From positions 150,001 to 182,000 of the forward strand of contig CP064967.1 of NCBI GenBank assembly GCA_016699265.1: a stretch of 32,000 nucleotides of DNA, given 5' to 3'. Made by a program: the position numbers and the translations under genes. The notes beneath the pieces are model-generated. The model saw only the letters and a program-made list of their open reading frames with translations, made no database searches and had not been told where the DNA came from. Within the stretch, counting starts at the first letter, position 1, and each line of letters begins with the position of its first letter. Source of the DNA: Candidatus Saccharimonadota bacterium. Lineage in GTDB: Bacteria > Patescibacteriota > Microgenomatia > UBA1406 > GWC2-37-13. Of the stretch, positions 6,788-28,377 are shown piece after piece.

Positions 6788-7336
6788 ATGTTAAAAATCG
6801 TAACTGTACCAAATAAAATCCTCACATCTTCAACACAGAAAGTGAAGAATATTACACCTAAAATTAGGCGTCTGGTAGAGCAGATGAAGGAAACTTTGAT
6901 CAGCCAGCGTGATCCAGAAGGAGTAGGCCTTGCCGCAACTCAGGTAGGGGAGAGTTTGAGCATTTTCATAATGCGACCAGAATTAAAGGGCGAGATTATT
7001 GTTTGTATAAATCCTGAGGCAACGGTAGTTGAGTCAAAGGATGTTATTCATGAAAGCAAAACACTTCTTGCTAAAAAAAATAAACATGCGAAGATGGAGG
7101 GATGCCTCTCGATACCCAGAATCTGGGCTCCACTGAAAAGAAAGGGTAGAGTACATCTTAACTATGAAGATCTTGATGGAAACAAACACTCAAAAGAGCA
7201 TGAGGGCTTTGAGGCGATTATTGTTCAGCACGAGGTCGACCATCTAAACGGAATTTTATTCACGCAACGATGTCTGGAGCAGAAAGTTACGCTTTATGAG
7301 GAAGAAGGGGATGAGTTGGTGGCCCTAAAGACCTAG
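6788..7336 (+). CDS. def: Peptide deformylase
   Basis: All three signature motifs are present: GVGLAATQVG, EGCLS and QHEVDHLNG. Confidence 0.9.
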   Translation: MLKIVTVPNKILTSSTQKVKNITPKIRRLVEQMKETLISQRDPEGVGLAATQVGESLSIFIMRPELKGEIIVCINPEATVVESKDVIHESKTLLAKKNKHAKMEGCLSIPRIWAPLKRKGRVHLNYEDLDGNKHSKEHEGFEAIIVQHEVDHLNGILFTQRCLEQKVTLYEEEGDELVALKT

Positions 7337-7445
7337 ATTATTTTTTATCTATTATTTCTTATTTTTTATTGAGTTTCTAATTTGAAATTGATTAATTTAG
7401 CGATCAATTAGAAATAGTAAATAAGAAATTAGCAAATAGGGAGAA

Positions 7446-7733
7446 TTAGGCGGTAGCAACTGGAGTAGAGGTTGCCTTCATCTGAGTCTGAGCAAGAACG
7501 TAGAACGGCTTCACTCCATCGGTCATGTCCTTTCGAATTCGCTTAATGCACTTTGTGCAAAGACGCACTGTTTCGGACTTACCTTTGATCATAATGGCAA
7601 TTTTCTGAAGGTTTGGTTTAAAGATTTTTTGTGTTTTTGGAGCTCTTTTCTTCCATCGTCCTCCCGCAACACCACGATGGTGGGTATGTGAGCGTCCGAA
7701 TATAGTCGATTTTCCACAGTGAAAGCATTCCAT
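7446..7733 (-). CDS. rpmB: 50S ribosomal protein L28 (Cys-containing variant with a C-terminal extension)
   Basis: MECFHCGKSTIFGRSHTHH...FKPNLQKIAIMIKGKSETVRLCTKCIK follows the L28 pattern C..(T)GK...G...SH....F.PNLQK. I chose the internal ATG at 7733 over the longer ORF-track start. Confidence 0.75.
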   Translation of the reverse strand: MECFHCGKSTIFGRSHTHHRGVAGGRWKKRAPKTQKIFKPNLQKIAIMIKGKSETVRLCTKCIKRIRKDMTDGVKPFYVLAQTQMKATSTPVATA

Positions 7734-7838
7734 AGAGTCGTGTAACTTGTAGCTTAGAACATGAAGCTCAAGATAGACATATATGATATCATAAAGATGC
7801 GGTTTTGGCAATTTTCAATTGAGGATTCTAGTTGTATT

Positions 7839-7958
7839 GTCATCCCGAATCCCGACAGTTTTGGGATGAGGGATCCAGCGAAGCGAAGTTAGACTTGGCA
7901 AAGCCAAGTTAGACTTGGCGAAGCGCTGCGCTAGATTCTTCGTTTCACTCAGAATGAC
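7839..7958. repeat. MITE-like palindromic repeat, family A, intergenic copy (GTCATCCCGA ... CTCAGAATGAC)
   Basis: The imperfect terminal inverted ends are gtcatcccga / tcagaatgac. There is an internal tandem duplication of aagttagacttggc(a/g)aagc. The right ~45 nt are nearly identical to 9245-9293. Confidence 0.8.
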
Positions 7959-7982
7959 CAGATTAAATAAGATCTCTAAACT

Positions 7983-8765
7983 ATGAAATTATCGCTTTGT
8001 ATAGCCGTCTTCAACGAAGAAATTAACCTTCACTATCCGCTCGACTCATGTATAGACTGGGTAGACGAGGTGATTATAGTAGACGGAGGCTCTACTGACC
8101 GAACGGTTGAGGTTGCTAAGTCATACGGTAAAAAGGTTAAGATATTCCACCGAGACAACCCTCCATTATTCCTTATTAACCGCCAAAGAGCCATGGATCA
8201 AGCGAAAGGCGACTGGATTTTACAGTTAGATGCGGATGAAGAGGTGACGGAACAATTGAAAGACGAAATACTTTCAATTGTAAGTTCTAAGTTCGAAGTT
8301 CAAAGTTCTAAATACATTGCCTACTGGATACCAAGACGCAACTTTTTTATTGGTCGATTCCTCATGAAAGGTGGTGTATATCCAGATCCAGTCCTCAGAC
8401 TGTACAGAAACGGGTGCGCATCCTTCCGAAGCGAACACGTGCATGAGCATGCGGTCATCGATCCATCTGTTATTTTTCCAAAGCTGAAAAAAGGGGAGTA
8501 TAGAGTTGAGGACTATATCGGTAGGTTGAAGAACGACCTCTGTCACTATGCAGATCCATACTTTGGTCGTTATCTCATGCGATGGAAGCGGTATAACAAA
8601 GTAGATGCAAAGCTGTTGAATGATCAAAAAAAGAAGGCTGGATTTTTCAATTACTGTATCTGGAAGCCAATCTACACATTTATTTTGCTTTACGGTCGCC
8701 ACAAGGGCTTTATGGATGGGTGGCAGGGTTCGTCTTCGCTTTTATGTCATCGGTTAGGTTTATAG
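7983..8765 (+). CDS. Family 2 glycosyltransferase (apparent frameshift near the 3' end)
   Basis: LSLCIAVFNEE...VIIVDGGSTDRT...LQLDADE is the GT2 core. The expected C-terminal amphipathic tail is readable in another frame from 8729 (see findings). Confidence 0.8.
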   Translation: MKLSLCIAVFNEEINLHYPLDSCIDWVDEVIIVDGGSTDRTVEVAKSYGKKVKIFHRDNPPLFLINRQRAMDQAKGDWILQLDADEEVTEQLKDEILSIVSSKFEVQSSKYIAYWIPRRNFFIGRFLMKGGVYPDPVLRLYRNGCASFRSEHVHEHAVIDPSVIFPKLKKGEYRVEDYIGRLKNDLCHYADPYFGRYLMRWKRYNKVDAKLLNDQKKKAGFFNYCIWKPIYTFILLYGRHKGFMDGWQGSSSLLCHRLGL

Positions 8766-8891
8766 ATATCTATCTAAAAGCGAAAAGAATTTCTAATTTC
8801 TGATTTTAATTTTGATATTTATTTCTAATTTTTCAATCTATAGATTTAAGGATCGATAATAAATAAGAAATAATAAATAAAAAATTAGAGT

Positions 8892-9959
8892 TTAAGACCC
8901 TATCTTAAACTCGACTACGTCTCCATCCTTCATCTCGTGATCTTTCCCGCAGATCTGCACCTTTCCTTTCTCTCGTGAACCGGTCCAGCCATTGCAACTC
9001 ACGAAGTCATCATAGGTCACTACATCGGCCTTGATAAACTTCTTTTCAAAGTCGGTATGGATTGTTCCAGCAGCCTGAGGCGCGAGGGTTCCTTTTGTGA
9101 TTGTCCAGGCACGTGCCTCCTTTTCTCCCGCGGTCAAAAAAGAGATAAGCCCCAATGTTTCATAGGCTTTTTTTATCAGAGTAATCAAAGTTGTTTCCTC
9201 GAGTGGGTTGAAAAGCATGAAATTGTCATCCCGAGAACTAGCGAGGGATCCAGCGGAGCGCTGCGCTAGTTTCTTCGTTTCACTCAGAATGACTTCAATT
9301 TTCTTCTTTGTTCCTTCTTGATCTTCGAGCTGCTCGAGCGAGCAGTTAAAACAGTAGATAACCGGCTTAAAGGTAATTAAGTTGAGAGGTTTCACAGCCT
9401 CCACTTCCTCGATGTGAAGTGAAAGAGTGCGGGCTGGACTGCCTCCATCGAGATGATTCTTCAGTTTTTTAACCACTTCATATGCCACAAAAGCCTCCTT
9501 AGGAGCGCTCGTTCCTTTAGGCTCTTTTTGTTTGTTTAAGGTCTGTAGATCGGCTAAAATCAACTCGGTTTCGATGGTTTGGATGTCGCTTACTGGATCA
9601 ACTTTATTATCCACATGGATAATGTCCTTATCCTCAAAAAGTCGAACGACGTGCAAGGTGGCTGCCACCTCCCGTATGTGAGTGAGGAATTGATTACCAA
9701 GTCCTTCGCCTTGCGATGCACCTTTTACAAGTCCCGCAATGTCGTAAAACTCTACCGCTGCGGGGACGATTTTGCTAGTGTGAACAATTTCAGCAAGTTT
9801 TTGGAGCCGTTCATCAGGTACCTCGATGATTCCGACATTAGGGTCAATGGTAGCAAAAGGATAGTTTGCCTCTAGAGCGACCTGCTTCTTTAGTAGGGCA
9901 TTAAATAGAGTTGATTTTCCAACATTAGGGAGTCCAACGATCCCGATAGAAAGTTTCAT
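8892..9959 (-). CDS. ychF: Ribosome-binding ATPase YchF
   Basis: [17 protein letters not shown] (G1), [10 protein letters not shown], and a C-terminal TGS-like region [14 protein letters not shown]...[15 protein letters not shown] preferred the ATG at 9959 over the TTG at 9968. Confidence 0.9.
9225..9293. repeat. Family A palindromic repeat inserted in-frame in ychF (69 nt = 23 codons)
   Basis: gtcatcccgagaactagcgagggatccagcggagcgctgcgctagtttcttcgtttcactcagaatgac. On the minus strand it encodes [23 protein letters not shown], in the variable linker before the TGS domain. Confidence 0.8.
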
Positions 9960-10069
9960 GAGCCTCAATTATAGCAGTAGGACGTGCGTAATAGTTTGTA
10001 GGTTATACTGTTTTAAAGAACTGATATAATCGCTGTTGGTATTGGAGTTGGGAATGTAGATAAAAAGAT

Positions 10070-11914
10070 ATGCGAAGCACTTTAAATCTTAATTCTGAGA
10101 AAAAATCGACAAATCATCAACTTCGACATGAACAAAAGCAGAACTGGAAGGTAGCGTTATATTTTTTCTTCATTATTGTCCTTGGAACGCTACTCTCAAA
10201 AGGCTCTATTCATGCTGGGTTTCTATTAGACGATCTTATACAAAGGCGCGTTTATCTTACACATAATTTACAGTTAAGTTTATTAAGAGCCTTCTCGTTT
10301 ATAGACGGATCTAATTTGGGATGGCTTATAGAGCGAGGGCAAATACCGTGGTGGTCCCACGTAGATCTTAAAATTTCCTTCTTTAGACCCGTTACTGCTC
10401 TCACTCACTACCTCGACTATGTGTATTGGCCAAAATCCTCAGAGCTAATGCACCTACAGAGCATTTTATGGTTTTTGATTGTATGTTCGTTGGTTTTATT
10501 TTATTATGAAAAAATTTTCAGGTCTTGGAAAACGGCATTGGTAGCCGCATTTCTTTTTACTGCTGATTTTAACCATTACAGTCCAATCGCATGGCTTGCA
10601 GACAGAAATCGATTAATCGCTCTCTTTTTCGGTTTGTTAACGCTTCTAACCCATCGAATGTGGGTGAATAGCTCTAAAAGTTTTTACAGATTTTTGGCAT
10701 TATTTCTATTTTTTACGACATTACTTTCTGCGGAGTCCGGAGTAGCGGTATTGGGCTTTATAGTGTTCTATTCAGTACTGCTAAAAAGGTCAGATATCAA
10801 GAAGCTTTCTCTTATGGTCCTAGATTATATTGTCGTTTTTATTTTTTGGTTGGTCATCTATGCTGCACTGGGTTACGGAGTGGCCAATACGGGACTGTAC
10901 ATAAATCCAGTAGCCGATCCAGTTCGATATTTAGGCTTGATTATCGAGCGAATTCCAATTCTTTTCATAGAGCAGTGGCTCAAACCAAGTATGTTTGTGC
11001 CTAGAAATCTATGGTCATGGCCAGATCCTTCACTTTATAGTCTTATAGAGGCTCCAGATAAATATTTTTACTGGACAGCGTCCATTGCAGCCATATTTGT
11101 GCTGTGGAAGGCGTTACACAGGATACTTAGAAAAGATGAGGTTGCTCAATATTTCATAGTCTCGACTTTTATAGCATTGTTTTTCGCTTCAACAACTAAA
11201 ATTATTGATGGACGTTTGCTTATTTTTGTCGGACTAGGCACGAGTGGCCTTGTGGCGCAGCTATTATTTTTATTTTTAGGAAAAAAGAAAAAACAGTTTA
11301 CCTATTTTTCAATTTGCATACTGATATTATCAGTTGTTTTGCAGGGCATACTGTCTCCAATCAGACTCTACAACTCTATGGTTCAAAAGTATTCATTTTC
11401 GGATGAGCTCGAAATTCTTACCGATTTCGAAAAGAACGCGGAAGGAAGATCGCAGTTTGTGATTAATTCTCCAAGCATGCATTATGTAGCTTATGCTCCT
11501 TTCGTGCGTAACTCAGGCTCATCAACTAGTGCTCAGTATTTAGTGCCGGGCTACAATCCGATACTAGTAAAGCGGGTAGATGAGAATGCACTACAAATTA
11601 CCATACTTGAAAAGCCAGAAGTAAAATCTTATTTCAATAAGCTTGATCCGAAAAAGTTATATGAAGATCTAGAACTAACATTTAACAAGTCGGATTTCCC
11701 CACTGAGGTGAGTAATTTTAGAGTACGAAATTTTTATGTTGAAGTTTTAAAATCTCACAATAAATCGGATAGCAAGATTATTAATTTTAAGTTCGATGAG
11801 AAGTTGTCGAGCAAATCTTATATTTGGTATCGGTGGGACTGGAAAAAAAGGAAATATGAGATCTTTACCATTCCTAAAGTTGGAGAAGAAGTCATCATAT
11901 CCGCTCCTAATTAA
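10070..11914 (+). CDS. Large polytopic membrane protein, possibly a GT-C fold (ArnT/PMT-like) glycosyltransferase
   Basis: More than 10 predicted TM helices, an early acidic loop motif (GFLLDDLIQ) and a soluble C-terminal domain of ~170 aa. The functional assignment is weak. Confidence 0.55.
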   Translation: MRSTLNLNSEKKSTNHQLRHEQKQNWKVALYFFFIIVLGTLLSKGSIHAGFLLDDLIQRRVYLTHNLQLSLLRAFSFIDGSNLGWLIERGQIPWWSHVDLKISFFRPVTALTHYLDYVYWPKSSELMHLQSILWFLIVCSLVLFYYEKIFRSWKTALVAAFLFTADFNHYSPIAWLADRNRLIALFFGLLTLLTHRMWVNSSKSFYRFLALFLFFTTLLSAESGVAVLGFIVFYSVLLKRSDIKKLSLMVLDYIVVFIFWLVIYAALGYGVANTGLYINPVADPVRYLGLIIERIPILFIEQWLKPSMFVPRNLWSWPDPSLYSLIEAPDKYFYWTASIAAIFVLWKALHRILRKDEVAQYFIVSTFIALFFASTTKIIDGRLLIFVGLGTSGLVAQLLFLFLGKKKKQFTYFSICILILSVVLQGILSPIRLYNSMVQKYSFSDELEILTDFEKNAEGRSQFVINSPSMHYVAYAPFVRNSGSSTSAQYLVPGYNPILVKRVDENALQITILEKPEVKSYFNKLDPKKLYEDLELTFNKSDFPTEVSNFRVRNFYVEVLKSHNKSDSKIINFKFDEKLSSKSYIWYRWDWKKRKYEIFTIPKVGEEVIISAPN

Positions 11915-12004
11915 CATATTTTTTTGGGGGGGAATCTTGTTTTGTTCGTTTGTTAGGACTCTTTATTCAAAAGACTTATAAGTTTGGTGGGTTATAATTG
12001 CTTC

Positions 12005-17550: not shown

Positions 17551-18930
17551 TTAAGACTTCTTTTTGTAGTTAAATGAGAGAGTTACAAGGGTGGCGAGAA
17601 GAAGCAGAAATCCAAGATACTCAAGATATTGAGGCCAGAATATAGTTATCAGTTGTCGGTTTTCAGTCTTCAGATCCTGACCGCCGATATCTGTCGACTG
17701 ATTGCTCAATACCCAGCCGTTTTCCCAGTTATTCACCAATACATGATCCTTCAAAATTTGAAATTTGAAATTTGAAATTTGAAATTGGAATGCGATCCAA
17801 CCATCGTTAAAAGCAGAGCCGTTATGAAGTACCTTAAGTTCTTTTCGTACTCCCGAAACGTCTATCTGCGAAGCAAAATAATTGTAGTAAAGTGGATAGA
17901 TTGTCACGCTCTCAAGCTCATTTATTGTTTCATAGTCTCCATATGAGATGTTATCAATGTAAATGCCATACCCATGCCCAGACTCATAGGGTGGTATTAC
18001 AAAGTAGTCGTTAGTCATAACTGAGGAATGGGACAACTCATCGTATGTGTCACAAAGACTGGAGTATAGATTCTTTATGCAAAAACGGAGTGGTAGGCCC
18101 TTGATATTTTTTGATCTGAACCCAATCGCATAACCAAGATTGTGGGGGAATGTGTCGTTTTGCAATGCTATCCCGCGTGTAAAATTTTTAGTTCTCAGTT
18201 CAACGACAGATGTATTCCCATCCTTTTTCAGCGAGATAACGTTTGGTACCTGTTGATTTTTAATAATTCGTTCTGATGAGAATTTAATCGCGTGCTTTAA
18301 ATCGGAAATTGAGGCCGTGAGTTCAGGTTTTATTCTGTCGGTTTTGGTGAGAAAGTCGCGAAAAGGGTAATTGAAAAGCCTGGTGAGATGTTTGTTAGTA
18401 GTTATGTATTCTGGATGGTCAAGATATGCTTGGTCAATAAAATTCCAGCGATAGCTCGGCGAGATCTGAGTATTTATCTTAAGAATCTGAGGTTTTTTTG
18501 GCAAAACTACTTTATAAATCAGGATTGTACCAAACTGCCTAATTTTTTTAAGTTTTCCAGCCTGTGTGAGTTTCTTTATCGTATCTATAGTCTCGCGTTG
18601 GTACAAAATTTGATTTCTGTTTTTTTCAGTAGGCGTTATGACCGACGTATCCCAAACCAAATAACCAATGTCGTACTTTTCAAGAGAAGCGTAAAATTGA
18701 TTATAGTGTTGGCTATAGAGCGTGTACTGAAGCTCTCTAAACGATTGTTCATTGGCAATGCTCCAACGATCCGAGTCTCTATCAAGCACGGGTTGTTTCA
18801 TGCCAAACCAGATAAATCCAGAACCCTGATAGCCCTGCTTGCCGGTAGGCGTAGTCCAGTTGTAATACTGCCAACCTGAAAATGTATGGAGTGGAAGGGT
18901 GAGCACGGGCTGCATAGGTTGGGATTCCAT
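17551..18930 (-). CDS. Extracytoplasmic domain plus terminal TM; probably the C-terminal part of a split GT-C-like membrane protein
   Basis: There is no N-terminal signal. The C-terminal TM is YLGFLLLLATLVTL. The frame is open upstream to 18963. See the finding on frameshifts with 19074..20438. Confidence 0.55.
   Translation of the reverse strand: MESQPMQPVLTLPLHTFSGWQYYNWTTPTGKQGYQGSGFIWFGMKQPVLDRDSDRWSIANEQSFRELQYTLYSQHYNQFYASLEKYDIGYLVWDTSVITPTEKNRNQILYQRETIDTIKKLTQAGKLKKIRQFGTILIYKVVLPKKPQILKINTQISPSYRWNFIDQAYLDHPEYITTNKHLTRLFNYPFRDFLTKTDRIKPELTASISDLKHAIKFSSERIIKNQQVPNVISLKKDGNTSVVELRTKNFTRGIALQNDTFPHNLGYAIGFRSKNIKGLPLRFCIKNLYSSLCDTYDELSHSSVMTNDYFVIPPYESGHGYGIYIDNISYGDYETINELESVTIYPLYYNYFASQIDVSGVRKELKVLHNGSAFNDGWIAFQFQISNFKFQILKDHVLVNNWENGWVLSNQSTDIGGQDLKTENRQLITIFWPQYLEYLGFLLLLATLVTLSFNYKKKS
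17642..17675. repeat. Family E repeat, copy in a membrane-protein CDS
   Basis: The reverse complement, atctgaagactgaaaaccgacaactgataactat, matches 25473-25506 at about 30 of 34 positions. It encodes LKTENRQLIT. Confidence 0.75.
17754..17788. repeat. Tandem heptamer (AAATTTG)x4 plus one imperfect unit inside a CDS
   Basis: Read directly. On the minus strand it encodes QFQISNFKFQIL. The same motif family fills intergenic DNA at 6058-6100 and 3988-4075. Confidence 0.9.
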
Positions 18931-19073: not shown

Positions 19074-20438
19074 TTAAACTTTGAGATGATCCATAGAAGA
19101 GCGTACGAAATAAATATAAGCGTATCCGAAAATTAATAGAATCGATAGTTTTGTAAAGACAAAACGGAGCGCCTCTTCAAAAACCGAAAATTTGAGAAGA
19201 ATATTAAAGAGCCAGCTGAATGGAGGAGTACTGTTCATAAGTAGCGTGAAAGGCAGTATGTAAAAGGGCAGTAGAGACTTCAAAACTCGGTTCTTTTCTT
19301 TTATCGCTAGGTAAATACCGAAAAGAGATAGAGCAAAAAATCCATATCCAACACTGGCAACGACGGGATTATTGAGATGATCTCGCCACTCAGGCATAAG
19401 GTACTCAAAACGATTTTTCTCAAAATTGAACACAGACCACTGAAAGTAGAAACCGCGTACAAGGGCGACATCCTGAATATAGCCATTTTCTTGATTGCGA
19501 ACTCGGTACTCCTGTGAGAAGATGCGATTCTGCTTACTTTCCTTGGGGACGGATGATGAGGTTGCTATGTAATAGATATTGGGGAGAAGCCATAAACTAT
19601 TTATAAGGAGTGTTAAAAGTAGAAGGGTTACTGCTTTTTTTGTCATCCCGAACTGTTTTTTGTCATCCTGATTGTTAGTGAAGGATCCAACGACCGAAGG
19701 TAGCGCATTGCCAGATTTTACTCCCGACGTTGCGTTGTGATAAGAATTACGATTTAAAACGGTATAAATAATTAGGAAGAGAAGGTAAACGCCAAAAAAT
19801 GCATACCAAAGATGGGCGGCATACGCCTGAGGCATGGCAAGTAGCGTTACTAATCCAAATAACCACAGATTTTTTTTGTTTGAACTGTGTTCTAGGTACT
19901 TTAGACTAAAAAGTACAATCCACGGTAGAGCCGCATACTGCGAAGTGAACATCTCAAACGGAGCGTAAAATTGCTGAACAGTACCGGGATTAAAGAGATA
20001 AAACAGAGAACCTATGAAGGCGACTGTGCTTGTAGCATAGAGCTTAGAACTTAGAACTTCCTCATGTTCTATGTTTCGAGTTCTACGTTCTAATATCTGC
20101 TTTAGAAGAAAGTACATTCCCAAAGGTCCAAAAAGTAAACAAAGAAAAACATAAAAATAGCGAAGAGAGCTAAGTGGAAGTGCAAAATGAAGCAACCAAA
20201 GTATGACTACTCGTGGTAGATCCGCCATGTGCGAGTGTCCAGCGACTGCCCCAAGACCTTGTTCCTCACGCCATACACCATTAAACATACGTTCGAAGTT
20301 GAGACTAAAGTTGAGCTCGGGATGAAGCGTATCCCATCCGGTTAAGAAGGTATTTGGCTTATAGGTGAGATAGGCTACGGCAGAAACAATGATAATGATA
20401 AGGATTGAGTAGATGTTTCTTTTTAAAAACCGTAGCAT
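19074..20438 (-). CDS. Polytopic membrane protein; probably the N-terminal part of a split GT-C-like (AftD/DUF3367-like) glycosyltransferase
   Basis: More than 10 TM helices. The early loop TGWDTLHPELNFSLNFERMFNGVWREEQGLG resembles the first periplasmic loop of arabinofuranosyltransferase-like GT-C proteins. Repeat-derived segments lie at 19642-19690 and 20041-20098. Confidence 0.55.
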   Translation of the reverse strand: MLRFLKRNIYSILIIIIVSAVAYLTYKPNTFLTGWDTLHPELNFSLNFERMFNGVWREEQGLGAVAGHSHMADLPRVVILWLLHFALPLSSLRYFYVFLCLLFGPLGMYFLLKQILERRTRNIEHEEVLSSKLYATSTVAFIGSLFYLFNPGTVQQFYAPFEMFTSQYAALPWIVLFSLKYLEHSSNKKNLWLFGLVTLLAMPQAYAAHLWYAFFGVYLLFLIIYTVLNRNSYHNATSGVKSGNALPSVVGSFTNNQDDKKQFGMTKKAVTLLLLTLLINSLWLLPNIYYIATSSSVPKESKQNRIFSQEYRVRNQENGYIQDVALVRGFYFQWSVFNFEKNRFEYLMPEWRDHLNNPVVASVGYGFFALSLFGIYLAIKEKNRVLKSLLPFYILPFTLLMNSTPPFSWLFNILLKFSVFEEALRFVFTKLSILLIFGYAYIYFVRSSMDHLKV

Positions 20439-20903: not shown

Positions 20904-21016
20904 GGTATGGGTAAGGAACTATTCCTCAAGTCTTCCTGGTTGGAAGTTCGTTTCGATTTGCATCGAGACAGGCTCTAGGCTTCGGGACCTAGGTTGAGGT
21001 AGCCTCTTTTGTGGTG

Positions 21017-22036
21017 TCACTTGGTGACTGTGGTCTCCAAAACGGAGATCAACGCATCGCCTGCATAGACGAGAACGCGAACGTTCACGCTATTACACCC
21101 TTGTGGTGTACCGCAGTTTGCACCGCTGTTGCCGGGATCACCGCTGTTCAGGACTTCGTCCGGATGAGCCATCGTGGGCATGTTCAGCATGTTCGCCGAA
21201 CCGTGGGAAACCAGTCCCCAGACACCCCATTCGAGTGCATCTCCGTTGAAGTACCGGCCTCGCAACGTGAATCCGTTGTCGAAGGAGTTGTCGCGGAACG
21301 TGTAGGACTGATCCATCACGTTGATGACGAGCAACAAGCAACCCTGATCCGAACCGACCATGCCGCACTCGAAACCTTCGAAGTTGTAGGGACCGCTGTA
21401 GTAGCGATACTCCCAAGCTCCGACGATGAAGTCGCAGGGATCGGTGTAGCAATACGGGCTGTCATACGTGCCGTACTCCATTCCGTCAGGAACCTGTGTG
21501 CCGTCGACGACGCGGAATTCCGGTACATCCGTGTTGGGGACGTTCGGGAATGTCTTCCACATCTCGGGGGCTGGGTCCTGCAGGCGGTCCATCCAGGCCA
21601 TCACGATCGGGTTTTCGGCGAGCCGTTCGGTTGCGTTGATTGTCCACGCTCCGTGGGTCTCCGTTGAGGAGAAGCTTGGTGTGGGCTTCATTGCGACCGT
21701 GTTGGCCGTTGCCGTTGTGACCGTCGTTGCCGTTGCCGTTGTGACCGTCGTGGCGGGTGTCATGGTGGTCGTTGCGGGCGTGACCGTCGTGTCGGGCGTA
21801 GCCGTCGTCGGGTCCGTGGGCGTTCCAGCGGTCGTGCAAAGGACGTTGGCGTCCTGCAGATTGCCGGGGTGCTTCACGTTCCACTGCTCGACCTGCGTCA
21901 CGCAGACGGGGTCCAGGTTGGACACTGCCGAGGTTCCGTTGTTCACGGTGATCGCGTTGAACGCGAGCATACCGAAAACGAGTGTAATCACCACACTGAG
22001 TGCGGTGTAGAAACCCTTTCTATTGGTGGGACGCAT
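21017..22036 (-). CDS. Island protein 1: secreted or membrane-anchored protein with a Thr/Pro linker and a Cys-containing C-terminal domain of unknown function
   Basis: GGAGG-5nt-ATG at 22036. TM/signal FYTALSVVITLVFGMLAF. The linker is TPTDPTTATPDTTVTPATTT.... The ~200 aa C-terminal domain has no motif I recognise. Confidence 0.7.
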   Translation of the reverse strand: MRPTNRKGFYTALSVVITLVFGMLAFNAITVNNGTSAVSNLDPVCVTQVEQWNVKHPGNLQDANVLCTTAGTPTDPTTATPDTTVTPATTTMTPATTVTTATATTVTTATANTVAMKPTPSFSSTETHGAWTINATERLAENPIVMAWMDRLQDPAPEMWKTFPNVPNTDVPEFRVVDGTQVPDGMEYGTYDSPYCYTDPCDFIVGAWEYRYYSGPYNFEGFECGMVGSDQGCLLLVINVMDQSYTFRDNSFDNGFTLRGRYFNGDALEWGVWGLVSHGSANMLNMPTMAHPDEVLNSGDPGNSGANCGTPQGCNSVNVRVLVYAGDALISVLETTVTK

Positions 22037-22245
22037 CACTACCTCCTTCGAGGGTTGTTCATGGTTTGAGCCGTGATGTGCTCTTAAGCCGACTAAGGGG
22101 AGTTCCCTTCCATGAGCCGATCACCATACGACAGTGACGTTGTTCGAGGTTGAGTCGAGCATGACGCTGTCACATTTACGGATTTTACTCCGAAGGACCC
22201 GATCTGTTTGATCGTTGGCGATATCCTATCGTCTTCACCTTGAGC

Positions 22246-22689
22246 TCAGCCGCAGGTAGCCACGAAATCCAGCCACTTGGCCGGGTCGGGGATGACGCTG
22301 TTGAGCTCTTCCACGTCGGCGACGCAGGTGTCGTAGTTCGTCTGGATGACGATCTCTCTGATCTGGTCGCGGTTGAAACCGGTGTCGTCCTTCTTCACGA
22401 AGACGATTGCGCCGAGGATCATGGTGAAGATCAGGCTGATCAGGGTCAGTCCGAGGGACTTCTGGACGTTCTTGGAGAGTTCATAGAGGCTCTCTTCGGT
22501 CGCTGCCAGGGGCATCCATGTGGCGTGATCCGCCGGGTTCAGGGTCTCGAGGTGGGCGACGATGCACTCCTTCAGAGCCTTCTTGGATCCATTGCTGGAC
22601 AGTAAGAGACCTTGTGCGCACCGACGCAAGACCTTCTTGTTGGTCTGCTCCTTGACCCATTGGATCAGTTCTTCGTTGGTGGGATTCAT
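22246..22689 (-). CDS. Island protein 2: single-pass membrane protein of unknown function
   Basis: AAGGA-6nt-ATG. The central TM is LGLTLISLIFTMILGAIVFV. It is preceded by conserved upstream module copy A. Confidence 0.65.
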   Translation of the reverse strand: MNPTNEELIQWVKEQTNKKVLRRCAQGLLLSSNGSKKALKECIVAHLETLNPADHATWMPLAATEESLYELSKNVQKSLGLTLISLIFTMILGAIVFVKKDDTGFNRDQIREIVIQTNYDTCVADVEELNSVIPDPAKWLDFVATCG

Positions 22690-22695
22690 AACACG

Positions 22696-22828
22696 TCCTT
22701 TCGACGATTAGTACTTGTCATCTCGACACGGTATCAGCGGGGTTGCTGAACCGATTTTACGGGATTGTCCGAAGACTTACCGTAGGACTGCAAGCTCGAC
22801 CGAAGTCGGCTGCGATGATCGTGCCCTG
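22696..22828 (-). promoter_or_regulatory. Conserved upstream module, copy A (putative promoter / structured leader)
   Basis: About 130 nt align with 23407-23534. It contains two hairpins and the RBS block CGTCGAAAGGA next to the start codon. See findings. Confidence 0.55.
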
Positions 22829-22842
22829 ATGGGGCCGTTGTA

Positions 22843-23400
22843 CTACAGCGTCGGAGGCAGCGTTAGCTGCGGCGGCGGCGATGTGGTCGTTGTCGGCGGC
22901 GATGTGGTCGTTGTCGGCGGCGATGTGGTCGTTGTCGGCGGCGGCTGTGTCGTCGTTGTCGGCGGCGGCTGTGTCGTCGTTGTCGGCGGCGATGTGGTCG
23001 TTGTCGTTGACGTTGTTGTCGTCGTTGACGTTGTCGTGGTGGTGGCCGGAACACACGAGTTCACGTTGAACTCTTGTTCTGACACATTCCCTGCGTGACC
23101 GTTCGTGTTCCAACTTGCTGACAAAACAACTGATCCTCCTTTCGAGAAGTCGAATGGGATCGTACCGTTGGTGTGAGTACCGTTCCAGACGAGCTGCTTG
23201 TAGGTGGTGACCTCCTTGTACACGATCTTGATCGTGATGGAGTTGCTGTTCGCGTCGGCGAAACCTTCGGTCTCATAGCTCACGCCTACGCAATCTGCGG
23301 ACAGGACGCTTGTGTGCGCACTGGCAATCCGGTTGGTGGTGAATACCATCAACATGTTAAATACAACGAGCCATACTAAGACTCTCTTTTTGCGTGTCAT
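22843..23400 (-). CDS. Island protein 3: secreted protein with a C-terminal (T4-5 S/Q P2-3)n repeat tail
   Basis: The ATG at 23400 is preceded by AAGGA-6nt, chosen by analogy with copy A. Signal peptide KKRVLVWLVVFNMLMVFTTNRIASA. The tail is TTTTSPPTTTTQPPP... Confidence 0.7.
   Translation of the reverse strand: MTRKKRVLVWLVVFNMLMVFTTNRIASAHTSVLSADCVGVSYETEGFADANSNSITIKIVYKEVTTYKQLVWNGTHTNGTIPFDFSKGGSVVLSASWNTNGHAGNVSEQEFNVNSCVPATTTTTSTTTTTSTTTTTSPPTTTTQPPPTTTTQPPPTTTTSPPTTTTSPPTTTTSPPPQLTLPPTL
22869..23045. repeat. Tandem 21/24-nt coding repeats (Thr/Pro tail of island protein 3)
   Basis: ggcggcgatgtggtcgttgtc x3, then ggcggcggctgtgtcgtcgttgtc x2, then further degenerate units. All other frames and strands give low-complexity shadow ORFs. 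Confidence 0.9.
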
Positions 23401-28294: not shown

Positions 28295-28377
28295 TGCCGA
28301 GGGAGAGAATCGAACTCTCATGACCTTGCGGTCATAGGTTTTTGAGACCTACGTGTCTGCCGTTCCACCACCTCGGC
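28295..28377 (-). tRNA. tRNA-Leu (anticodon CAA)
   Basis: The minus-strand sequence is GCCGAGG-TG-GTG-GAACGGCAGA-CAC-G-TAGGT-CTCAAAA-ACCTA-T GACC GCAA GGTC AT-GAGAG-TTCGATT-CTCTC-CCTCGGC-A. It folds into a full cloverleaf with a long variable arm. No CCA is encoded. Confidence 0.85.

Follow-up and report, generated by a model that had tools for sequence, protein, structure and literature searches.

A two-armed hairpin repeat lying in frame within ychF of a Candidate Phyla Radiation bacterium, most likely translated as a tolerated insert

How does a palindromic repeat come to lie inside the reading frame of a conserved gene, and what becomes of it there? The question is raised by a stretch of 32,000 nt from Candidatus Saccharimonadota bacterium (contig CP064967.1, positions 150,001 to 182,000 of the forward strand; hereafter the window), in which the gene ychF contains a palindromic segment of 69 nt. 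A first-pass annotation made from the letters of the window had described this segment as an in-frame insertion, either tolerated or removed at the RNA or protein level. We found that it is a copy of a two-armed hairpin repeat which lies in frame in ychF and is most likely translated as a tolerated surface loop of 23 residues, comparable to the palindromic repeats in genes of Rickettsia. The palindrome belongs to the same family as an intergenic copy nearby and keeps the frame open. Tolerated insertion is the best reading.

The repeat in the reading frame of ychF

The element and its host gene comprise the following features.

8892-9959, minus strand: ychF open reading frame (ORF), 355 aa from the ATG at 9959, host gene of the repeat
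9225-9293, minus strand: two-armed hairpin repeat, 69 nt, in frame in ychF, encoding residues 223-245
9268-9294, minus strand: sense-strand arm, (A)GTC ATTCT GA GTGAAAC GA AGAAA C
9224-9251, plus strand: second arm, on the opposite strand, GTC ATCCC GA GAACTAGC GA GGGAT C

The plus-strand letters at 9225-9293 run GTCATCCCGAG...CTCAGAATGAC, and the layout is that of a head-outward dimer of hairpins like the CGTC/TGTC-tagged repetitive extragenic palindromes (REPs) and the Ssn-related motifs (SRMs). The sense-strand arm forms a hairpin with a GAA triloop in which one outer stem pair has been lost (AGAAA for AGAAT); a covariance model of the arm, R1, scores it at 41.5 bits (E 6e-8). The second arm has an intact outer stem of 5 bp and a degenerate inner part, and reaches 23.7 bits (E 0.0026). 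Only one sense frame of the element is open (VIL...[QR][DN]D), as stop codons occur in the other two. Coordinates, frame, and the Pfam and PDB matches of the host protein thus bear out the element as it had been described. The same allele is found in an independent contig of the same population (L001), and a 99%-identical protein is known from another source, which excludes an assembly artefact. Among the matches listed in a metagenome scan with the YchF protein, there was one identical locus and one 66% locus, the others being distant YchFs. Rfam contains no family that matches the repeat at gathering thresholds; the permissive matches are generic long-hairpin miRNA models far below their cut-offs.

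The host gene is a member of the YchF/OLA1 P-loop NTPases, in which a G domain carrying the P-loop is combined with a helical domain inserted into the protein and with a TGS domain at the C-terminus. Pfam assigns YchF-GTPase_C (PF06071, 3.9e-34), MMR_HSR1 (PF01926) and TGS (PF02824) to the ORF product, and a PDB search returns solved YchF structures (E 5e-92). An upstream TTG at 9968 could serve as the start instead, giving 358 aa and a full ORF span of 8892-9968. The YchF homologs place the lineage in the Microgenomates group of the Candidate Phyla Radiation (CPR)/Patescibacteria. The gene is under purifying selection, since the window protein shares 94% of its amino acids with the YchF of its closest element-free relative (P0002, locus L081) at a third-codon identity of 59%. 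It had also been called an essential gene, which is not established; ychF deletion mutants of E. coli are viable.

The first-pass annotation had assigned the insert to a linker that joins the helical domain to the TGS domain and had suggested an ortholog alignment and an AlphaFold model as checks. An AlphaFold2 model built from 66 sequences (mean pLDDT 80.9; TM 0.75-0.81 against YchF structures) locates it elsewhere, namely in the second half of the G domain, past the G4 asparagine and between a helix and the next beta-strand. In the model, the insert forms a helix extension, in which residues 223-232 of the insert prolong the helices 214-227 and 229-232, followed by a low-confidence loop (residues 232-244, pLDDT <50) and the strand 247-250. 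The ortholog alignment does not yield a clean indel of 23 codons either. The window YchF has 355 aa against 345 aa in P0002 and 338 aa in other relatives, and the site holds 15 unrelated residues in P0002 and 4-20 residues in the other relatives. We also observed that NCSL replaces the NxxE motif in the G4 region of this clade (residues ~205-255) and that about 22 residues after the following strand are absent (FNPLEE vs CAKLE...YGLEE); judged by these sequences, the nucleotide-specificity region of this clade's YchF appears remodelled.

Two further loci of the window contain the repeat.

7839-7958, no strand assigned: intergenic copy of the same subfamily, 120 nt, with R1 scores of 45.3 and 23.9 bits
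about 19641-19754, minus strand: decayed in-frame repeat-derived insert of ~34 aa (...GSFTNNQDDKKQFGMT...) in the membrane-protein ORF 19074-20438

The intergenic copy sits in a gap of 171 nt between the end of a minus-strand L28-like ORF (7811) and the start of a glycosyltransferase gene (7983), the two genes being divergently oriented. Its relation to the ychF copy had been noted for the right ~45 nt. The relation holds and is in fact wider, as both ends and the core are common to the two copies: the first 10 nt are identical, 94% of an 18-nt core matches, and over the final 37 nt the identity is 97% (E 3e-14 for this stretch in a search of the window). The intergenic copy is identical in L081 (120/120), and L001 carries an 80-nt intergenic version (2818-2897) in which 63 positions are identical with the ychF copy. 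The 120- and 80-nt dimers differ by the presence or absence of a 40-nt internal segment that forms a hairpin. The degenerate pieces reported at ~19.6 kb are likewise real. Alignment with orthologs in L085 and L087 makes an in-frame insert of ~34 residues evident, and it contains an R1 arm at 19661-19688 (26.1 bits, E 6e-4). Across the 32 kb, R1 gives no match with E <9 beyond this arm and both arms of the two complete elements. There are therefore three repeat loci in the window, two of them inside ORFs. The membrane-protein region itself consists of two ORFs (17551-18930 and 19074-20438), which correspond to a single gene for a ~900-aa protein in L085 and L087.

Arm structure, distribution and recurrent occupation of one site

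The arm can be written as YGTC + ATYCT-GA-[RY GAA RY]-GA-AGRAT + C, and each arm forms its own stem-loop. In the arms of the family found in the window (F1), there is an outer stem of 5 bp, then the pair of GA internal loops, and finally an inner stem of 2 bp that the GAA triloop caps. The stem begins with A-T and T-A, and the arm sequence is nearly identical across phyla. Across 140 arms, the pair 6/22 is T-A in 77 and C-G in 63 and nothing else, the pair 11/17 is G-C in 98, A-T in 38 and other in 4, and the pair 12/16 is C-G in 124, T-A in 12 and other in 4. When the 30 distinct arm variants are considered, 98.1% of the cells are paired, a value reached by 0/500 shuffles and far from attained in any slid register; G2, T3, C4 and C26 are invariant. 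Between the two arms of an element, position 6 pairs at random and the variable positions show no co-variation. The arm is thus the structural unit, as co-variation is found within arms and is absent between them. For the same reason we abandoned a single long inter-arm hairpin as the conserved structure, position 6 pairing perfectly within an arm and randomly between arms. Among 67 complete elements, the base preceding GTC is T in 53 and C in eight, and the base past the far end is A in 54.

A scan of one genome per species with the 25-nt arm pattern yielded at least 120 genome stretches, which represent many phyla, namely Acidobacteriota, Bacteroidota, Chloroflexota, Nitrospirota, Bacillota (Lachnospiraceae, Oscillospiraceae), Omnitrophota, Verrucomicrobiota, Gemmatimonadota and several CPR groups, and also in 77 viral contigs. 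The possibility that the element is unique to ychF and the intergenic site, raised earlier as a test of the insertion, is thereby refuted. The cross-phylum loci contain 69 complete two-armed units, 53-148 nt long, of which 16 are divisible by three in length (no modulo-3 bias) and three lie in long stop-free frames. In one of the Bacteroidia (L126, minus strand, ~5422), an arm ends 1 nt before the ATG of ychF, probably by coincidence.

The picture differs for coding copies. When 230 kb of CPR loci, all of which had been picked around ychF, were searched for strict palindromes, eight elements were retrieved against 0.25 expected in shuffles. All eight are inside long ORFs and in frame, and their lengths, which range from 63 to 117 nt, are each divisible by three, vs 16/69 among the mostly intergenic cross-phylum units (Fisher p 3.5e-5; p 1.3e-3 when independent loci only are compared). 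Such a length rule is what selection on translated inserts predicts, which argues against removal at the RNA or protein level. We also asked whether G-U wobbles point to a sense-strand RNA hairpin and dropped the idea because the wobble/mismatch bias over the coding copies (9 to 4) is inconsistent.

We found that the ychF site itself is occupied repeatedly. Full F1 elements are present at the same codon position in the window and, confirmed at the DNA level, in L083, L088, L089 and L090, whose YchFs are 63-86% identical to the window protein. Of these loci, L090 derives from a complete CPR genome, CP065004.1. L212 contains a 69-nt element of a sister family, F2 (GTCATTGCGAG...), L213 a 56-nt element of a third family, F3 (GTCATCCTGAACTCGTTTCAGGATCC...), and L214 and L085 a solo arm each. 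Repeat-derived peptides occur at this site in about 25 of 120 CPR YchFs. They are scattered over the neighbour-joining tree, in which the neighbours of carriers are often sisters with the peptide 'EILKQVQ[ND]DK' (a probable solo arm) or with nothing recognisable. We also considered 'EILKQVQNDK' as a collapsed two-arm element; a solo arm is preferred, as the GAG/GAA-ATT 5' codons fit the tail of a single arm better and R1 scores one arm.

Between carrier lineages the third-codon identity of ychF is 0.33-0.44, while the 5' arms agree at 20-26 of their 26 positions; in L083, L089 and L090, all eight third positions of this arm are identical (binomial p 0.0014). The outer stem shows compensatory changes (ATCCC/GGGAT in the window and L083, ATCCT/AGGAT in L089 and L090), and all ychF copies have a second arm whose inner part is degenerate. 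For the window, L212 and L213, the family or subfamily of the occupant is that of the other copies in the same genome. These comparisons suggest that a permissive site in ychF has been repeatedly colonised, or overwritten: the arms are far better conserved than the synonymous sites of ychF, the full, solo or decayed copies found there come from four sister families, and three genomes have at this site the family of their own other copies. They also answer a doubt that had been attached to the insertion from the start, namely that orthologs of other lineages might carry a homologous segment as native sequence. Such a segment is present in them, but it is itself the repeat, so that its presence does not make it native, given arms conserved at synonymous sites, host third positions conserved far less and the own-genome family match in three cases.

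A second recurrent site is found in the glycosyltransferase gene beside ychF, where L213, L214 and L086 are occupied. The site is a variable one near residue 100 of the family-2 glycosyltransferase, with in-frame hairpin dimers or a solo arm at L213:3854-3931, L214:7385-7501 and L086:11437-11472. The glycosyltransferase gene of the window (7983-8765) contains at 8276-8316 an AT-rich stretch, VSSKFEVQSSKY, that resembles intergenic AT-rich repeats. Its ORF stops early, at about 8730-8765 (GWQGSSSLLCHRLGL), while the relatives all run on with ...FVFALFSSIRY...; the early stop reflects a frameshift or sequencing error near the 3' end.

Related repeats, the allele tract and neighbouring observations

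The repeat can be compared with several known systems. CGTC-tagged REPs (Di Nocera et al. 2013, PMC3733652) are marked by a CGTC or TGTC tag, with a CCTC variant allowed, and by a stem that starts with A-T. They include RPE-4, RPE-6 and the Neisseria dRS3 repeats and are known from Bacteroidetes, Chlorobi and others; in the families described, the stem runs for 8-9 bp without interruption, the loop has 4-5 nt, and most copies form head-to-head dimers (PMC3733652). Some are intragenic, and in Xanthomonas recB the same site is used in orthologs; a dedicated transposase was not found in that survey (PMC3733652). Our repeat shares with this class the unpaired CGTC/TGTC head, the A-T/T-A start of the stem, the short C-led tail, the dimers and some intragenic copies, and the F3-type and solo arms at the ychF site have the 8-bp stem and the 5-nt loop. 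The F1 stem, in contrast, is interrupted (5 bp, GA/GA, 2 bp, GAA triloop).

The small GIY-YIG nuclease SsnA binds and cuts the hairpins of NTS repeats, more generally of SRMs, as single-stranded DNA (ssDNA) only, and is inactive on RNA (Chenal et al. 2025, PMC11893778). For cleavage and binding, the three bases immediately upstream and the C that follows the palindrome are critical, and 42% of ssnA homologs have repeats on both sides (PMC11893778). NTS repeats in Neisseria modulate the integration of transforming DNA, genes beside dRS3 repeats are more diverse, and NTS are rarely intragenic (2% in N. meningitidis) (PMC11893778). The invariant GTC upstream and the C right after the palindrome in our arms agree with these needs, and the genes adjacent to the repeat show sequence diversity as well. 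A repeat-nuclease-repeat architecture with a single-domain GIY-YIG gene of ~90 aa is found in other genomes, between or beside arms in L093, L149, L098, L104, L155 and L278; of these, L093 is from Saccharibacteria and L104 from Gracilibacteria. PF01541 was confirmed in all five GIY-YIG proteins scanned, and an arm-bracketed gene of this type occurs in a few percent of the sampled loci. Control loci centred on ychF from other bacteria (984 kb) contained neither a GIY-YIG gene nor an arm. We do not present this association as a new finding, since it has already been published as the Ssn/SRM system (PMC11893778). The repeat differs from NTS/SRM in that the SRM pattern does not match it, the copy in ychF is intragenic and the window contains no nuclease gene. 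In the window and eight CPR loci, the published SRM pattern had no match at all.

The palindromic elements of Rickettsia (RPEs; Ogata and colleagues; PMC10969869) are the closest parallel for the coding copies, as they too are in-frame palindromes in unrelated conserved genes of a host-dependent bacterium with a small genome and add a peptide at sites compatible with the fold. RPEs are, however, ~150 bp long and described as Rickettsia-specific (PMC10969869), whereas the copies considered here measure 53-120 nt and are found in CPR, with arms that cross phyla. The kinship may be real and go beyond analogy, because RPE-4 and RPE-6 are themselves classed as CGTC-tagged REPs (PMC3733652). The REPIN/RAYT system of GTAG REPs (PMC3116915, PMC3337134) is similar in that an inverted pair of hairpins forms the non-autonomous unit and the enzyme gene is flanked by repeats. 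It differs in the head (GTAG vs YGTC) and in the enzyme (HUH tyrosine transposase vs GIY-YIG nuclease). Intragenic MITEs (transposable elements of the miniature inverted-repeat type), such as the Coxiella QMITE (PMC5896051) and the enterobacterial RU/ERIC (PMC2759123), are small inverted repeats that sometimes form in-frame fusions or inserts. These are lineage-specific, larger and flanked by direct repeats, while here no target duplication is seen and the arms are cross-phylum. The term MITE-like, used for the element at first, therefore applies to its inverted termini but not to the rest, as there is no target-site duplication and the associated gene encodes a GIY-YIG nuclease instead of a transposase. 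The repeat fits the known class of CGTC-tagged REPs and Ssn-related motifs, with some Rickettsia RPEs included, and probably belongs to it functionally as well.

The comparison of the window with L081 revealed one further feature.

7970-9876, no strand assigned: divergent allele tract (glycosyltransferase gene and ychF) relative to the otherwise identical L081

Across 7050-11950, the two sequences differ at 314 alignment positions (substitutions and repeat indel columns). Nearly all of these are within the tract, with zero in 7200-7969 and 9877-11244, and the substitutions are mostly at third codon positions. Hence, the ychF genes with and without the element are diverged alleles exchanged by homologous recombination and not a recent insertion/excision pair, and the 1.9-kb mosaic tract has the appearance of an allele acquired by import. 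The intergenic repeat is ≤12 nt from one of its edges. The position of this edge near the intergenic dimer fits the reports on Neisseria repeats, although it is a single case and the proximity may be due to chance.

Several other observations were made in the window and its relatives. The region 21000-23100 has a G+C content of 57-59% against a background of ~40%, and its 21-nt tandem repeats code for stretches rich in Thr and Pro in proteins that are apparently secreted. At 22715 and 23418 there is a direct repeat of 52 nt that starts with TTGTCATCTCGA, followed by a hairpin, and may be another head-plus-hairpin variant. Near ychF of L212 (8860-9620), an IS200-like Y1 transposase gene (PF01797) has ~31 nt, GCCAAGCTTGTCATAACCTCGGAGGTTGTGT, on both sides and resembles a RAYT-type unit that belongs to another repeat family. 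Genes for 23S rRNA intervening-sequence proteins (PF05635) come and go among the relatives (L081:3419-3781, L081:19188-19568, L084:14280-14633, L085:18498-18887). A link between them and the repeat was considered and dropped, as the flanks at 3/4 sites checked are unrelated AT-rich inverted repeats. The tRNA gene at 28295-28377 (minus strand) is the sole Rfam match of the window at the gathering threshold.

Competing explanations and significance

The favoured explanation is that copies of the repeat spread within genomes, probably via an ssDNA-based route, and that selection would purge those in coding sequence except where the net length is a multiple of three, the frame open and the site structurally permissive. 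The loop between helix and strand in CPR YchF would be such a site, recolonised, or overwritten when the genome's own copies serve as donors in gene conversion, and homologous recombination would also carry the element-bearing allele from strain to strain. Sequence identity, frame, arm structure, distribution, recurrence at the site and the allele tract are shown; translation and tolerance of the insert, its reliance on an Ssn-type nuclease and the way in which copies spread are what we infer. Some points weigh against this explanation. Neither the window nor the 230 kb of close CPR loci contained the nuclease gene, so that the link to Ssn runs via other genomes, and the GIY-YIG proteins of those genomes gave only weak, sub-threshold NCBIfam matches, none of the Ssn type, and an empty PDB sequence search. 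The published degenerate SRM pattern, used as a regular expression, matches NTS but no arm of F1, F2, F3 or F4-solo. The flanks of complete elements contain a T at -1 and an A at +1 only, with no target-site duplication or excision footprint. The choice of ychF-centred loci biases the high fraction of coding copies. The occupant of L213, at 56 nt, is by itself not a multiple of three, and the inner sequence that the window and L083 copies have in common is also compatible with vertical inheritance in that clade. The evidence for translation of the insert, finally, consists of constraints on frame and length, which suggest it at the level of sequence.

Vertical inheritance is the core of an alternative in which a single insertion in an early CPR YchF was exapted, so that the peptide is now a functional part of the protein. 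It would account for the occupation of the same codon position in many lineages, for the recurrence of the peptide VILNEVKNP...GSFA.AQDD, for the wide occurrence of the 'EILKQVQNDK' version in short and long CPR YchF forms, and for the likeness of the inner sequences in the window and L083. We nevertheless consider it unlikely. Four sequence families occur at the site, three of them in genomes with other copies of the same family, the arms are conserved at synonymous positions while the third positions of the host gene are near saturation, sister lineages have no repeat or an unrelated sequence, and the loop is variable in sequence and modelled at a pLDDT <50. An account that is compatible with the favoured one, and that we regard as possible but rather unlikely, holds that the hairpins are kept for a role in DNA or RNA and that the peptide is a by-product. 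They might, for example, be recognised by an Ssn-type ssDNA nuclease through which the ychF-glycosyltransferase locus is modulated in its recombination or transformation, or act as mRNA structure. Arm conservation beyond the neutral expectation, outer stems kept by compensatory changes, the recombination tract that ends beside the intergenic dimer and the effects of the Neisseria repeats on transformation and on neighbouring genes (PMC11893778) speak for such a role. The degenerate inner part of the second arm in all ychF copies speaks against it, as do the many relatives that manage without the repeat and the inactivity of SsnA on RNA (PMC11893778); the tract, moreover, is only one, and its edge may be close to the dimer by chance.

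It is very improbable that the segment is lost ahead of protein function, whether as an RNA resembling an intron, through translational bypass or as a peptide resembling an intein. RNA folding of the segment is better than that of shuffled sequences (z -2.3 and -3.2), yet the conserved structure is the DNA-type hairpin within each arm and not one long hairpin. The segment keeps one sense frame open, it matches no Rfam intron or other family, its 23 aa are far below intein size and no stop codon is available as take-off for bypass. A constraint of coding copies to multiples of three would also serve no purpose for a segment taken out at either stage, ahead of translation or following it. The idea of an assembly chimera, or of native ychF letters having been duplicated into the intergenic site, has the similarity of the two loci in its favour and nothing further; it is refuted, as the same allele occurs in independent contigs and samples and the arm in more than 100 unrelated genomes.

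The favoured explanation can be extended. The YchF loop, and the similar site in the glycosyltransferase, may act as a landing pad at which a solo arm, the remnant of an earlier copy, lets the resident family of each genome recopy itself time after time through repair that depends on an Ssn-type ssDNA nuclease. We offer this as a speculative and rather doubtful extension. If true, it would be the first case of a homing-like, site-recurrent spread of REP-type repeats into coding sequence, and the GIY-YIG nuclease would be the long-missing mobilising enzyme of CGTC REPs and RPEs.

We should note that the phenomenon as such is known from CGTC-REP/SRM hairpins and Rickettsia RPEs, and that the host lineage, the arm variant and the recurrently colonised hot spot in YchF are new here. 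In practical terms, the published SRM pattern misses this arm variant, and gene callers will mis-handle the inserts, while intergenic copies may become spurious ORFs. The YchF hot spot bears on how CGTC REPs move, to which SsnA was linked only in 2025, and the four sister families at one YchF loop are a natural experiment on the tolerance of a protein to insertion. In-frame palindromes in conserved genes, formerly a curiosity of Rickettsia, are now found in the CPR, which are also reduced in genome and host-dependent. Together with the cross-phylum arms, their presence in the CPR suggests a general outcome wherever REP/SRM hairpins meet genomes with almost no intergenic space.

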